The notes beneath the pieces are model-generated. The model did not search any database. It was not told the DNA's origin and saw nothing but the letters and a program-made list of their open reading frames with translations. This document shows positions 15,095 through 22,156 of a stretch of DNA of 64,000 nucleotides, piece after piece. Source of the stretch: Flavobacterium sp. GTDB taxonomy: Bacteria > Bacteroidota > Bacteroidia > Flavobacteriales > Flavobacteriaceae. The stretch's first letter is position 1. Every line of letters begins with the position of its first letter. The stretch covers positions 1,307-65,306 of the forward strand of contig NZ_JAQVCH010000014.1 of assembly GCF_028689845.1 (NCBI RefSeq), in the 5' to 3' direction. A program made the translations under genes and the position numbers.

Positions 15095-16996
15095 ATGGGA
15101 AAACCTTTCGAAGAGGAATTAAAAAAGATTGATTATACTTATCAATGGGCATTAAAAGTTCCTGTTGAAGAAATGGATTTTATAAAAGACATTTTACATG
15201 ATAAATCTCTTTTAGTTGTTGGCTCTGGGGGGTCTACTTGTAGTTGTTGTTTGTTTTCTATGCTGCAACAGAAAAACGGAAGAACAGCAAATTATATTAC
15301 CCCCTTAGAGCTTCAATATGTTAAAAACTCTATCGATAAAAAAACAAGTGTTTTTTTTATTAGTGCTAGTGGAAAAAATACAGATATTTTATTTGCATTT
15401 GATACTGCTTTGAAGCAAGAACCTTCAAATATTGTCAGTTTTTGCATGAAGAAAGGCTCGCTTTTAAGCAATAAAAGCTCAAATTATTCAATTTCTAAAA
15501 CAATTGAATTAGATAATCCAGTTGGTAAAGATGGTTTTTTAGCAACAAATTCTACGATAGCTTATTTTACAATTATCGCTAGATTTTTTGATAATAATAG
15601 AAATATTGAAACCTTAATCCCTTCTGATGAATTCTTAGAAGAAGTTAGATTATTTTCTTTGTCTTTACATAGCGACTTTACTGTAACAGTACTTTACAGC
15701 GGTTGGAGTAAACCGGTTGCATTAGATATAGAATCCAAATTTTCTGAAGCTGGTCTAGGTAATGTGCTGTTGACGGACTACAGGAATTTTGGTCACGGGA
15801 GGCATAATTGGCTCGATAAGAAAAAAAAGCAGTCAGCTATTGTTGCACTGATTACAGAAGAAGATGAAGCTTTAGCAGATATGACCCTTAATTTAATTCC
15901 TAGCGAAATTCCTATCTTAAGAATAATTTCTGAATATTCAGAGTCAAATGCAAGTTTGGACTTGCTTTCCAAGTCATTTTATTTGGTAAATCAGGTTGGT
16001 AAAATTAAAGGGATTGATCCCGGAAAACCCGGCGTTCCTCCATACGGTAGTAAGTTGTATCATCTTAAGTACTCAAAAACGTTTGTCAAAAAAGATATTT
16101 TGAATAGTAAAGTAAAAAATGCTATTAGAAGAAAGTTTGGTGATACAGATAACATATCGAATGAGATTTTTTTACCTTTATGGATTAAGTCCTATAATAC
16201 TTTTGTCTCAAATATAAAGAAAACGAAATTTAAAGGAGTTTTGCTGGATTATGACGGTACTTTATGTTCAACTGAAGAAAGGTATTTAAACCCCAGAAAA
16301 GAAATTATTAATAAATTAGAGTTCTTTTTAAATAATGGTATTACGGTAGGGGTTGTAACAGGACGTGGAAAATCAGTAAGGGAAACTTTGCAGAAAGTAA
16401 TTAATGTAAAATATTGGGATAAATTTTATATAGGATACTACAATGGTGCTCAAATTGGTACTCTTAATGATAATCTATTGCCTATAAAAGATAATGATCA
16501 AATGCTTTTTAATGACATTGAAAGAGTATTAAAAAACGAAGAATTAGTAGGCCAGTTTGTCGATTTAGAATTGAGAAAAGGTCAATTGACTGTTATTGTG
16601 AAGGAGAATAAAAATTCTCATATCGTTAAGAGTATCATGAAAGATATTTTAATAAGATTATATCCAAATGAAATTCAAATTTTAGAATCTAGCCATTCAA
16701 TAGATATTATTTCTACGTTTACAACTAAAAACTCGATTATTCAATACATTAGAATGGTGTTGAACGACAAAGAAAAAGAGTTTTCTTTTTTATCAATTGG
16801 TGACAGAGGAAAATGGCCAGGAAATGATTTTCAATTGCTTTCAAATAGATTTTCTTTAAGTGTAGATGAAGTTTCTTCTGATCCTCACACGTGTTGGAAT
16901 TTATCCTCTTTAGGAAACAACTGTGTTGAGACTACCTTAGAGTATTTTGATGCTTTTCAGGTTTTAGATTATGGTTTTTTTAAAATGAAAATTTGA
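15095..16996 (+). CDS. Fusion protein: double SIS (sugar-phosphate binding/isomerase) domain plus HAD-IIB-like phosphatase domain
   Basis: SIS motifs VVGSGGST and FFISASGKNTD. HAD motif I LLDYDGTLC, then VVTGRG, then GDRGKWPGND. 633 aa. Confidence 0.7.
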   Translation: MGKPFEEELKKIDYTYQWALKVPVEEMDFIKDILHDKSLLVVGSGGSTCSCCLFSMLQQKNGRTANYITPLELQYVKNSIDKKTSVFFISASGKNTDILFAFDTALKQEPSNIVSFCMKKGSLLSNKSSNYSISKTIELDNPVGKDGFLATNSTIAYFTIIARFFDNNRNIETLIPSDEFLEEVRLFSLSLHSDFTVTVLYSGWSKPVALDIESKFSEAGLGNVLLTDYRNFGHGRHNWLDKKKKQSAIVALITEEDEALADMTLNLIPSEIPILRIISEYSESNASLDLLSKSFYLVNQVGKIKGIDPGKPGVPPYGSKLYHLKYSKTFVKKDILNSKVKNAIRRKFGDTDNISNEIFLPLWIKSYNTFVSNIKKTKFKGVLLDYDGTLCSTEERYLNPRKEIINKLEFFLNNGITVGVVTGRGKSVRETLQKVINVKYWDKFYIGYYNGAQIGTLNDNLLPIKDNDQMLFNDIERVLKNEELVGQFVDLELRKGQLTVIVKENKNSHIVKSIMKDILIRLYPNEIQILESSHSIDIISTFTTKNSIIQYIRMVLNDKEKEFSFLSIGDRGKWPGNDFQLLSNRFSLSVDEVSSDPHTCWNLSSLGNNCVETTLEYFDAFQVLDYGFFKMKI

Positions 16997-16997
16997 T

Positions 16998-19978: not shown

Positions 19979-21114
19979 TGGAAGAAAACAGATGGAATCC
20001 TTATGTTTTATTGCAAGATGAGAGTGTCAAAGAATTATGGCGTAATCATTTTTATGGTAGCAACAAGAAAGTGTTGTTTATACTAGGAAAAGGATTTGAT
20101 GTCAGAATGAATTTAGGAATTCAAAGTTTAATTGAAATTTGTCCAAATATAGACTTGGATTGTTTATTAATTGGACTTGATGAAGGCAAGGACTCAAGTT
20201 CTCATAAACTTCAAGATTTAGTAGATGAGAATATCGATGAAATCAATTCTCTTCTTGTCAATCAAAAAATTATAAAAAAGGAGTTAAAATTGTGGAGTTC
20301 CAAAGGAAAGAAGAAAGTAAAAATTGGCGATAGAGAAGCATCGAACTTAATTGAAGGATACGAAGAGATTAAGAATTACACAGATATAATTGTTGATATT
20401 AGTGCACTTCCCAGAGGTGTTTACTTTTCTTTAATAGGAAAGCTACTTACATTAATAGATAAATATTCGGATAACACTCAAAATTTATTTGTTTGTATAT
20501 CTGAGAATGCAAAAATAGATGAGTTAACAAAAGAAAAAGTAACAGAAGGAGATGTAAATTTTTTACATGGTTTTGGTGGAGGAATTGAGATAACTTCTGA
20601 AATTGATAAGCCTTTAGTTTGGTTTCCCATTCTCGGAGAAGAGAAATTATCACACGTTAGAAAAGCATTTGGAAAGATTACAGAGACGAAAAATAGATTG
20701 TATGAAATTTGCCCAACTTTTCCTTTTCCATCTAAAGACCCGAGGCGTTCTGATTCTATATTGATAGAATATCACGAATTATTATTTGATGAACTTGGAA
20801 TAGAACCTCAAAATATTATGTATATTTCTGAGAGGAATCCATTTGAAGCCTACATTCAGTTAAGTAATGCTATTAAAAATTATAAAAAATCGCTTGAAAT
20901 AATAAAAGGTTGTAAGGCAGCGTTATCTAATTTTTCTAGTAAACTACTATCTATCGGCACCTTATTAGCGGCTTATGAAAACAGAGATGATATTGGGGTA
21001 TTAAATGTTGATTCTCAGGGGTATGACTATGTTGATAAAAATGAAGTAAAAAAAATCAAGTTAGAAAGTGAACTTTTTGTAACTTGGCTAACTGGAGAAC
21101 CATACAATGATTAG
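19978..21114 (+). CDS. Hypothetical protein, fourth gene of the operon
   Basis: ORF in frame with the track start at 19966. ATG 19978 gives a TAATG overlap with the upstream stop. No motif recognised. Confidence 0.55.
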   Translation: MEENRWNPYVLLQDESVKELWRNHFYGSNKKVLFILGKGFDVRMNLGIQSLIEICPNIDLDCLLIGLDEGKDSSSHKLQDLVDENIDEINSLLVNQKIIKKELKLWSSKGKKKVKIGDREASNLIEGYEEIKNYTDIIVDISALPRGVYFSLIGKLLTLIDKYSDNTQNLFVCISENAKIDELTKEKVTEGDVNFLHGFGGGIEITSEIDKPLVWFPILGEEKLSHVRKAFGKITETKNRLYEICPTFPFPSKDPRRSDSILIEYHELLFDELGIEPQNIMYISERNPFEAYIQLSNAIKNYKKSLEIIKGCKAALSNFSSKLLSIGTLLAAYENRDDIGVLNVDSQGYDYVDKNEVKKIKLESELFVTWLTGEPYND

Positions 21115-22156
21115 CATAAAAAAAATACAAAAAAGAGAGGCTACTTGTGTAGGAAGTGGTCTTGTGGCATTAGATGTAATTGTTAATGGTAGTCCATCTA
21201 CTCCGGCTAAATTATGTGCAGGAGGTTCTTGTGGAAACGTGCTATCGATACTAGCATTTTTAGGATGGGACTCGATGCCAATTGCTAGACTAGCGGATAA
21301 TAATGCATCTGAGAAGCTTTTCGATGACTTTTTAAATATCGAGGTCAATACTTCCCTCATAACAACATCAAAAGACGGCACAACTCCAATAATTATCCAT
21401 CGTATTTTGAAAGATAAGGAAGGAAATCCTAAGCATAAATTTGAGTTTAGAGTCCCAGATACTAATGCTTGGTTACCTATGTATAGACCGGTATTGGCCT
21501 CAGCAGTAAATGAATTAATTTCTTTACAATCAGAGTGTAAAGTTTTTTATTTTGATAGAGTTTCTAGATCAACAATCAATTTGGCAAAATATTATAAATC
21601 AAAGGGAGCTTTAATTGTTTTTGAGCCATCTTCAATTAAAGACGACAAACAATTTGTTGAATGTTTGGATATACCTCATATTATTAAATTTTCAAGCGAT
21701 AGAATAAAAAATTATTCTGACTTATTTCCTGTACCAATTGCTCAACTTGAAATTGAAACTTTAGGGAAAGATGGTTTACGCTATAGATTGAAATCAGACA
21801 AAAATCCTTATTGGAAAACTATACCTTCATTTAAATTTGAGGACATTAAAGATACAGCTGGAGCTGGTGATTGGTGTACAGCTGGAATAATTAATGAACT
21901 TGGTTTTGATGGTTTAGAATCTTTTATGAAATCTGATAAAAGTGAAATCGAAAGAGCTCTTACTATAGGTCAAGTAATGGGAGGTATTAATTGTAGCTAT
22001 GACGGAGCCAGAGGTATAATGTATAATATGTCTTATCAGTCATTTATTGATGTGGCACAGGCGATTCTCAATCAGAATAAAAAAATACCAACTATTGAAC
22101 AAAGCCCAATTAAAATTTCTTCAATTAGTAATTTTAAATTTGATTTAATTCTTTAA
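21107..22156 (+). CDS. PfkB-family (ribokinase-like) carbohydrate/nucleoside kinase
   Basis: PfkB signature DTAGAGDWCTAG near the C-terminus and a Gly-rich N-terminal CVGSGLVALDV. Has an 8-nt overlap with the upstream gene. Confidence 0.75.
   Translation: MISIKKIQKREATCVGSGLVALDVIVNGSPSTPAKLCAGGSCGNVLSILAFLGWDSMPIARLADNNASEKLFDDFLNIEVNTSLITTSKDGTTPIIIHRILKDKEGNPKHKFEFRVPDTNAWLPMYRPVLASAVNELISLQSECKVFYFDRVSRSTINLAKYYKSKGALIVFEPSSIKDDKQFVECLDIPHIIKFSSDRIKNYSDLFPVPIAQLEIETLGKDGLRYRLKSDKNPYWKTIPSFKFEDIKDTAGAGDWCTAGIINELGFDGLESFMKSDKSEIERALTIGQVMGGINCSYDGARGIMYNMSYQSFIDVAQAILNQNKKIPTIEQSPIKISSISNFKFDLIL

Follow-up and report, generated by a model that had tools for sequence, protein, structure and literature searches.

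A portable five-gene cassette with a predicted CARF protein, a phosphoribosyltransferase and an ORC-like ATPase in a Flavobacterium genome

Five adjacent genes in a 64-kb stretch of Flavobacterium sp. DNA (the window, to whose positions all coordinates refer) raise a simple question: what are enzymes of phosphosugar and phosphoribosyl chemistry doing in one tight gene cluster with a large ATPase and a protein that a first-pass annotation of the locus had called an orphan? All five open reading frames (ORFs) lie on the + strand. They encode a SIS-SIS-HAD fusion (15095-16996, 633 aa), a phosphoribosyltransferase (PRTase) of the PRTase-CE family (16998-18086, 362 aa), an ORC/Cdc6-like P-loop ATPase (18089-19978, 629 aa), a protein that its sequence places in the CARF6 clade (19978-21114, 378 aa) and a PfkB-family sugar/ribose kinase (21107-22156, 349 aa). 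The set recurs in a fixed order across bacteria and archaea, and it travels. Our preferred answer, which we put forward tentatively and at somewhat less than an even chance, is that it may be a horizontally mobile conflict cassette (anti-phage or anti-plasmid) under the control of the CARF protein and the AAA+ ATPase, and may attack the metabolism of phosphoribosyl pyrophosphate (PRPP) or pentose phosphates.

Gene order, distribution and modularity

The first gene can be read from 15092 or 15095 and the fourth from 19966 or 19978. The N-termini of homologues ('MGKPY...' in alignment A4 and 'M..RWNPY' in alignment A1) back the starts at 15095 and 19978. With these starts, which the first-pass annotation had also chosen, the junctions between the co-directional genes are +1, +2, -1 (TAATG) and -8 nt, as it had reported. 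Its description of a single operon-like unit is equally sound: the genes abut or overlap, and the same set is found in the same order elsewhere.

The distribution of the cassette was followed through the CARF protein, in a scan that took one genome from each of 185,579 species and gave 89 matches. Of the 80 loci that were fetched, 70 contain all five genes, and contig ends truncate the other ten. Gene order and orientation agree in 68 of the 70 complete loci, so the arrangement far exceeds chance; the PfkB gene is inverted in L020 and L027. The hosts span about nine bacterial phyla (Bacteroidota, Acidobacteriota, Planctomycetota, Verrucomicrobiota, Armatimonadota, Bacillota, Actinomycetota, Pseudomonadota and Myxococcota) and three archaeal ones (Methanoregula, Methanotrichaceae, Nitrosopumilus and a Heimdallarchaeote), and include autotrophs or narrow specialists such as Nitrosopumilus, Methanoregula and Dehalobacter. 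The catalytic motifs of all the cassette enzymes (SIS-SIS, HAD, PfkB, PRPP loop, Walker A/B) are invariant.

Nothing else is conserved with the five genes. In flanks of +/-10 kb around the 80 loci we found no sixth conserved gene, and no non-cassette family occurs in more than 12 of the 80. The commonest flanking families are tyrosine integrase (12 loci) and MobA relaxase (8), and HTH_17, RadC, TniB/Mu-like (Tn7-like) transposition genes, SDR, HsdM and putative AbiC also recur. The 138 immediate neighbours include matches to SoFic, mad1, AbiC/AbiP, DrmD, ThsA/SIR2, GajB, Avs4, AbiEii and several PADLOC candidate systems. Flanks this rich in integrases, relaxases and defence genes make the cassette look like cargo of mobile elements and defence islands rather than a housekeeping locus. 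A capsule, salvage or other housekeeping context, which the first-pass annotation had named as grounds for dropping a defence role, was looked for and not found, and the flanks differ in nearly every locus.

The cassette is also carried by 19-20 plasmids (in Rhizobium, Agrobacterium, Sulfitobacter, Burkholderia, Paenarthrobacter and others), about half of them conjugative. The two plasmids that were inspected are both conjugative and carry all five genes, including where identity to the window ATPase falls to ~26%. In a Sulfitobacter plasmid (NZ_CP018081.1, 4015-11086 of locus L081) the cassette sits inside the transfer region, between the relaxase/coupling-protein genes and virB11-virB9. Such a position could mean that the cassette serves its carrier, as an addiction module or through exclusion or fertility inhibition of competing plasmids and integrative and conjugative elements. 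The frequency of integrases, relaxases, Tn7-like genes and RadC among the neighbours fits this, as does the finding that 50,697 phage records contain no homologue of the ATPase. Many loci, the window included, nevertheless lie in chromosomal defence islands without transfer genes, and the mechanism would overlap that of a conflict cassette and differ only in who benefits. We regard a purely element-centred role as improbable.

A few loci depart from the compact arrangement. Three rumen Bacteroidales loci carry a two-gene insert between the CARF6 and PfkB genes (L055 11180-12786, L060 10974-12578, L070 11221-12827), by its sequence apparently an AbiEi/AbiEii-like pair. At the same junction L058 (11196-13069) encodes a 437-aa protein that has the appearance of a P-loop ATPase. 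In Nitrosopumilaceae locus L057 (8961-9968) a gene resembling an IS630-type transposase separates the ATPase and CARF6 genes. All five genes are fragmented in the Bacteroidota metagenome-assembled genome L076 (5123-11428), a decayed copy of the cassette.

The five genes do not share a single history. When pairwise identities were correlated across 27 loci, the PRTase, ATPase and CARF6 protein gave coefficients of 0.90-0.94 with each other and the SIS-HAD protein gave 0.90 with PfkB, but the values between these two groups were only 0.69-0.75. The identities themselves tell the same story. In L037 the outer enzymes are 58% and 64% identical to those of the window and the core is ~50% identical; in L059, L064, L065, L069, L072 and L075 the figures are 42-52% and 33-36%; and in L004 to L019 the pattern is reversed, the core being closer to the window than the outer enzymes. 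The cassette thus consists of two modules, a core trio (PRTase, ATPase and CARF6) and an outer pair (SIS-SIS-HAD and PfkB), which have been shuffled against each other and have partly separate histories, yet are always found together. The trio would be a co-adapted unit, possibly a complex, and the outer pair would share a substrate. The shuffling fits a coupling of the two modules through a small molecule rather than through a co-adapted protein interface.

The core trio

The PRTase matches Pfam PF24390 (PRTase-CE) at 3e-24 and 86.7 bits (cutoff 27). Its AlphaFold 2 (AF2) model, with a predicted local distance difference test score (pLDDT) of 83.7, consists of a helical N-terminal domain (residues ~1-130) followed by a divergent type I PRTase fold. 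Foldseek returned uracil, orotate and xanthine phosphoribosyltransferases (UPRTase/OPRTase/XPRT) as the top matches of the model, with probabilities up to 0.99 but weak E values (E>=0.014), and found no structural match for the helical domain; a sequence search of the PDB with the family profile found no solved relative. Among the orthologues the PRPP loop L188xD190D191F192..S195G196 is invariant, as is G320-x14-P335N336, while N337 is kept in the closer relatives. Four PADLOC models named PRTase_III-A match the protein, the best at E=2.7e-12. We considered that this label might denote an accessory protein of type III-A CRISPR systems and dropped the idea in view of the literature on the PRTase effectors of type III-A retrons, to which it most likely refers. 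The kinship with phage-defence PRTase effectors suggested by the first-pass annotation is therefore supported by these retron models.

In Retron-Eco11 the PRTase is the abortive-infection effector, carries the retron-specific motif Gx14PNNxP and lowers PRPP upon activation (PMC12746101), and defence PRTases have been reported to form one clade (bioRxiv 10.1101/2025.09.30.679545). The cassette PRTase shares the PRPP loop and the G-x14-PNN motif with these effectors, but its trailing proline comes one residue later (PNNSxP), the homology is remote and the C-terminal winged-helix fusion is missing. Nor does the cassette contain a reverse transcriptase or an msr/msd RNA. The 1.2 kb or so directly upstream (13918-15091) matched no Rfam family, riboswitches included, and no non-coding block upstream of the cassette is conserved among seven related loci; neither a retron-like RNA nor a riboswitch for PRPP or guanosine tetraphosphate (ppGpp) is thus supported. 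Where the retron PRTase is controlled by reverse transcriptase and msDNA, we propose control by the ATPase and the CARF protein.

The ATPase belongs to a family already catalogued in Pfam as ORC-CDC6-like (PF24389): residues 49-612 match at 2.4e-25 and 89.7 bits (cutoff 27), and so do all 27 of 27 orthologues. The earlier call of a 629-aa NTPase therefore holds as far as the P-loop fold is concerned, and the protein can be given a family. Walker A (G56xG58K59) and the Walker B residue D244 are invariant among the orthologues, and D245 is present in at least 90% of them. Profile searches found no recognisable killing or DNA-binding domain in the ATPase, and a sequence search of the PDB with its profile found no solved relative. 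Conservation extends over the whole length of the protein, with no hypervariable region. This would suit a protein that detects a conserved small molecule or nucleic-acid feature better than one that detects a variable phage protein.

The supposed orphan can be placed. The protein encoded at 19978-21114 matches PADLOC model PDLC01910 (CARF6--CARF_CARF_CARF) with E=2.3e-112, residues 5-377 aligning to positions 2-348 of the 348 in the model. Three further CARF6 models match as well, and one related CARF6 model includes a transmembrane (TM) fusion, which is a sensor-effector architecture. CARF domains, which are ligand sensors, have a six-stranded Rossmann-like core in which a conserved basic residue follows strand 4 as part of the signature [DN]X[ST]XXX[RK] (PMC4012209). 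In our protein D140-I-S142-A-L-P-R146 directly follows a predicted strand (136-140) and matches this signature, D140, S142 and R146 being invariant in 28 CARF6 sequences; the Ser/Thr of strand 1 is replaced by G-K-G-F-D. The AF2 model (pLDDT 75.6, predicted template modelling score 0.83) shows a confident N-terminal Rossmann-like domain. Its Foldseek matches include, among generic Rossmann folds, Csx1-Crn2 (8y6z, probability 0.98), 8y75 and Csm6 (8jbb), all weak, with TM-scores of ~0.25; the match to Cdn1-cA4 (9u49) has a probability of 1.0, an r.m.s. deviation of 5.4 over 156 columns and again a TM-score of ~0.25. Viral structures gave generic Rossmann matches only, no Pfam family matched, and there was no PDB match by sequence. 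On this evidence we assign the protein to the CARF6 clade of CARF proteins and predict that it is a sensor.

The C-terminal half of the CARF6 protein (residues 210-378) matches nothing, and parts of its low-confidence model fall below a pLDDT of 50 (200-210, 239-256 and 307-319). It is strongly conserved, with the motifs WxPxLGE, EICPxxPFPxxxPRRxD, ExxPFxxY and SxxSSKLxSxG, and may house a further ligand site or an enzymatic one. Relatives of the protein number 649 in 90% identity clusters, where those listed with a name are all called hypothetical; at 50% identity there are 701 clusters, nearly all of stand-alone proteins of 360-390 aa.

Two precedents frame the possible work of this protein. 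RtcR likewise pairs a divergent CARF domain with a P-loop ATPase outside CRISPR (PMC4012209), although it is one polypeptide, a sigma-54 activator in charge of RNA-repair genes, whereas the cassette has separate proteins and an ORC/Cdc6-like ATPase, and no sigma-54 or DNA-binding module was detected in it. Given that CARF domains sense ligands and that the CARF domain of RtcR controls an AAA+ ATPase, we propose that CARF6 and the ATPase gate the PRTase. With the wider CARF signalling systems (ancillary effectors of type III CRISPR, CARF-HAD and the CARF-TM protein of Panoptes) the cassette shares the CARF-type Rossmann domain, the strand-4 signature and the defence context. It differs from them in that Cas10, CD-NTase and mCpol are not recurrent in the +/-10 kb flanks or among the most frequent neighbour families, and in that no recognised effector domain is fused to CARF6.

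A sensor flanked by four intact small-molecule enzymes and no cyclase invites the main rival to our reading, namely that the PRTase, HAD, PfkB and SIS enzymes synthesise a second messenger from PRPP, which CARF6 senses and the ATPase converts into an output such as DNA binding that blocks replication, or remodelling of a target. For Ter systems, PRTases and HAD phosphoesterases have been suggested as the makers of a signalling nucleoside derivative (PMC7824862), the CARF domain is a sensor of ligands (PMC4012209), and the shuffling of the outer pair against the core is what a diffusible linking molecule would lead one to expect. But the PRTase groups with toxic effector PRTases and not with a known signal synthase, the ATPase has no recognisable domain with which to kill or to bind DNA, and the Ter proposal is itself computational. 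The cassette also lacks the ATP-grasp and TerD proteins of the Ter module. We consider signal synthesis of this kind possible but on the unlikely side.

About as doubtful to us is a broader idea, that the cassette may represent a new, cyclase-free class of CARF immunity common to bacteria and archaea. Its currency would be a ribosyl or amino-sugar phosphate derived from PRPP, a ligand other than an oligoadenylate, sensed by CARF6 along with the ORC-like ATPase. An N-ribosyl-5-phosphate compound made by the PRTase would be rearranged by the GlmS/FrlB-type isomerase, dephosphorylated by the HAD phosphatase and rephosphorylated by PfkB, in Amadori-type chemistry for which defence systems offer no example so far.

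The outer pair

The SIS-SIS-HAD protein joins an N-terminal double-SIS module to a C-terminal HAD-IIB (Cof-type) phosphatase. It matches Pfam Hydrolase_3 at 8e-8 and SIS at 5e-4; NCBIfam HAD-IIB models match 25 of 27 orthologues, and NagB-II/GlmS models match too. Against the PDB, a profile of the 27 orthologues finds the glucosamine-6-phosphate deaminase NagB-II (8eol/3hba) at 1.6e-6, as well as 2aml, the FrlB-like deglycase 3eua and Cof-type HADs. The GSGGS loop (43-47) and E218...H234-G235 are invariant among the orthologues, the latter aligning to 'LKLKE...FLHG' of 8eol. A catalytic Glu followed 16 residues later by His-Gly is the hallmark of double-SIS enzymes (GlmS-isomerase/NagB-II/FrlB), and E218 and H234-G235 conform to it; we take E218/H234 to be the equivalents of the GlmS catalytic pair E488/H504. 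From these sequence features, the N-terminal module is predicted to be of the GlmS-isomerase/NagB-II/FrlB type. The scores of the SIS part fall far below the NCBIfam equivalog cutoffs. The HAD motifs D385xD387GT, K545 and G569D570...N577D578 are invariant in the orthologues, and motif II is T422 in the window protein.

PfkB, the other half of the pair, matches its Pfam family at 7e-6. A profile of the family finds fructokinase 5ey7 in the PDB at 5e-19, along with ketohexokinases and ribokinases, and NCBIfam models for ribose-1-phosphate kinase and fructokinase match 27 of 28 orthologues. The best equivalogs reach ~30-80 bits against cutoffs of 330-450, so a substrate cannot be assigned. The GAGD catalytic motif (D249..G252xG254D255) is invariant. 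Most orthologues outside the Bacteroidota have a CPxC in an insertion and a C-terminal CxxC (for example L043 11127-12215 and L047 11088-12167), which probably form a four-Cys zinc site; both motifs have disappeared from the window protein and from the remaining Bacteroidota copies. With these matches the domain calls of the first-pass annotation (SIS plus HAD-IIB, PRTase, P-loop ATPase and PfkB) are confirmed by Pfam, NCBIfam and PDB profiles, and the family assignments bear out its view that the enzymes point to phosphosugar or nucleotide chemistry.

The enzymes of the outer pair have metabolic counterparts. FrlB/FrlD combine the same superfamilies, a double-SIS deglycase/isomerase and a PfkB kinase, and GmhA/HldE/GmhB unite SIS, PfkB and HAD proteins. 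The cassette might accordingly be metabolic cargo for niche adaptation, dedicated to the salvage or catabolism of amino sugars, of Amadori (fructosamine-like) compounds or of ribosyl compounds. The SIS-SIS module is closest to NagB-II/FrlB-like enzymes, PfkB matches FrlD models in 8 of 28 orthologues and HldE-kinase models in 6 of 28, and many of the plasmids come from Rhizobium or Agrobacterium, in which the catabolism of opines and Amadori compounds is known. But kinase and isomerase score far below every equivalog cutoff, and no transporter or classical regulator was found in or adjoining the cassette. Pathways of this kind have no use for a CARF protein, an ORC-like ATPase or a retron-type PRTase. 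The neighbours are integrases, relaxases and defence genes instead of sugar-utilisation genes, and hosts such as Nitrosopumilus, methanogens and Dehalobacter are unexpected for a sugar pathway. The analogy with ADP-heptose synthesis (GmhA/HldE/GmhB) was downgraded separately, since the SIS part is of the double-SIS GlmS/NagB-II type and not GmhA-like; the cassette moreover lacks a nucleotidyltransferase and occurs in mobile, defence-rich contexts. A metabolic role is quite unlikely in our judgement.

The island in the window and the proposed function

In the window the cassette lies in a region of low G+C content (29-32% in 12000-32944, against 33-38% elsewhere), which ends near a tRNA-Asn gene (32870-32944, - strand) and is probably a genomic island at a tRNA; a search for att-like direct repeats of the tRNA of at least 16 nt found none. 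It contains a GmrSD-like DUF262+HNH gene (12574-13917), a GIY-YIG-like gene (24417-25016, a weak match), a GNAT gene (25016-25489), an Eco57I/MmeI-like methylase-type gene (27559-30462) and a NUMOD4 gene (31392-32555). The first-pass annotation had described a defence island between a toxin-antitoxin module and restriction-type genes. The GmrSD-like and Eco57I/MmeI-like genes and the low G+C content agree with the island and its restriction-type genes; the toxin-antitoxin module could not be verified.

The adjoining restriction-modification genes bear on a further possibility raised in that annotation, that the enzymes make an activated sugar or ribosyl donor for attachment to DNA or RNA, in a hypermodification or restriction-like system. 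Sugar-phosphate and PRPP chemistry is at hand in the cassette, and an ORC-like ATPase could bind DNA. But no transglycosylase, glycosyltransferase, DNA methylase-like or nuclease gene belongs to the conserved set or recurs nearby, and a CARF sensor is not typical of modification systems. Lacking any such partner, the hypermodification alternative is not supported, and we consider it very improbable.

The immediate surroundings of the cassette show several other features. Upstream, the interval 13918-15091 contains no convincing gene; it holds a 107-aa ORF with a TTG start, of odd composition and without a Pfam match, and an 81-aa antisense ORF, and could be a promoter region or the remnant of a lost gene. 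Downstream, the annotation had ended the cassette at a terminator (22163-22195, + strand). An element is indeed present in the sequence directly 3' of the last stop codon, a weak AT-rich hairpin with a 7-bp stem (CAAGTAA/TTACTTG), a 9-nt loop, CCA and then T7, and it is part of the minimum-free-energy fold. But it has only two G-C pairs and was not reported by a terminator scan of the window, and a stronger terminator-like hairpin with a 12-bp stem, five G-C pairs and a T-run lies at 22290-22317 (+ strand), before the gene at 22398; the interval 22150-22330 has a folding z of -3.98. Next come genes for a TauD/TfdA-family dioxygenase (204 aa) and a 169-aa UCP032817-like protein (22398-23541). 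The same pair stands 3' of the cassette on contig L083, whose CARF6 protein is identical; TauD directly adjoins the cassette in one further locus (2 of 138 neighbours), with no wider conservation, and the pair is probably unrelated cargo. Farther away, a 153-nt unit is repeated about seven times in 8168-9310, with 60-80% likeness between copies; no ORF there exceeds 43 aa, and no Rfam family matched. The consensus translates into repeats resembling a 28-residue pattern, broken by stops, and the region looks like a decayed gene for a repeat protein (beta-propeller-like).

The first-pass annotation had not recognised the combination of genes as any named defence or modification system, and for PADLOC-DB v2.0.0 this is correct: only the CARF6 and retron-PRTase models match, and no model matched the SIS-HAD protein, the ATPase or PfkB. 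The parts are already catalogued (PRTase-CE and ORC-CDC6-like in Pfam, CARF6 in PADLOC), but the five-gene set is not a named system, and the combination of PRTase, SIS-SIS isomerase and PfkB has no counterpart among known systems. Our literature search found no paper describing the set and no experimental study of it; PRTase-CE and the Pfam accessions were absent from the results, CARF6 turned up solely in text on other matters, and ORC-CDC6-like was confined to a preprint on BREX that has no bearing on the set. An earlier computational description is possible.

By analogy, the cassette would work most like a PRTase-effector abortive-infection system under CARF/AAA+ control. The PRTase is the proposed weapon because it is the only component with a precedent as one, in Retron-Eco11, in ShosT and in the defence PRTase clade. 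ShosT joins a HAD-type pyrophosphatase domain to a PRPP-binding PRTase (PMC11961720). Both ShosTA and the cassette thus pair a PRPP-binding PRTase with a HAD-superfamily phosphohydrolase, a combination that disturbs nucleotide metabolism in ShosTA (PMC11961720) and is proposed to do so here. In the cassette, however, the HAD domain is a IIB (Cof-type) one that shares its polypeptide with a double-SIS isomerase and not with the PRTase, there is no ShosA/DprA-like antitoxin, and three further genes are conserved. PRTases also keep company with phosphoesterases in the Ter module (PMC7824862) and in Ophion (rSAM-PHP-PRTase; bioRxiv 10.1101/2025.09.30.679545), conflict systems presumed to make modified nucleotides or signals; the cassette lacks the radical SAM and PHP proteins of Ophion.

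We envisage the following sequence of events for a conflict cassette. CARF6 and the ATPase would together form a switch, dependent on a ligand and on nucleotide, that holds the PRTase inactive until infection occurs. The SIS-SIS-HAD protein and PfkB would act on a common phosphosugar or ribosyl metabolite (or an amino-sugar phosphate), which might feed, pull or reset the PRTase reaction; alternatively, the outer pair might make or destroy the ligand of CARF6. Once triggered, the system would drain PRPP or pentose phosphates or turn them into an aberrant ribosyl compound. The supply of nucleotides would collapse, which would halt the invader's replication and probably also the growth of the host.

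Several observations weigh against this proposal, which is built on sequence and context. None of the cassette proteins contains a classical toxin domain, and the roles of SIS-SIS-HAD and PfkB fit no known defence mechanism. The ATPase has no fast-evolving sensor region, which is atypical for protein-sensing immune ATPases. Membership of the CARF superfamily is based on one labelled profile, one motif and weak fold matches, with no match to a CARF family in Pfam, and the cassette contains no cyclase or nucleotidyltransferase that could make a CARF ligand. The likeness to retron PRTases is remote (hidden Markov model E ~1e-12, Foldseek E>=0.014, proline shifted by one residue). Finally, the enrichment in defence islands is a qualitative judgement made with no background control, and some neighbours are housekeeping genes (GDP-mannose dehydratase, Hsp70, MnmE).

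If the cassette is a defence system, it would add a mechanism in which a short metabolic pathway that targets PRPP or pentose phosphates confers immunity, and CARF sensors would operate outside CRISPR and CBASS-like cyclase signalling. With an architecture that is invariant in about a dozen bacterial and archaeal phyla and modules that have been shuffled, it is well suited to clean tests and easily moved between hosts. For each protein a catalytic mutant suggests itself, and the quantities predicted to respond (PRPP, nucleotides, a new ribosyl metabolite and a CARF ligand) can be measured directly. The cassette could also help to clarify how cells are killed or arrested by the PRTase effectors, as yet poorly understood, of retrons, ShosTA, PsyrTA and Ophion.

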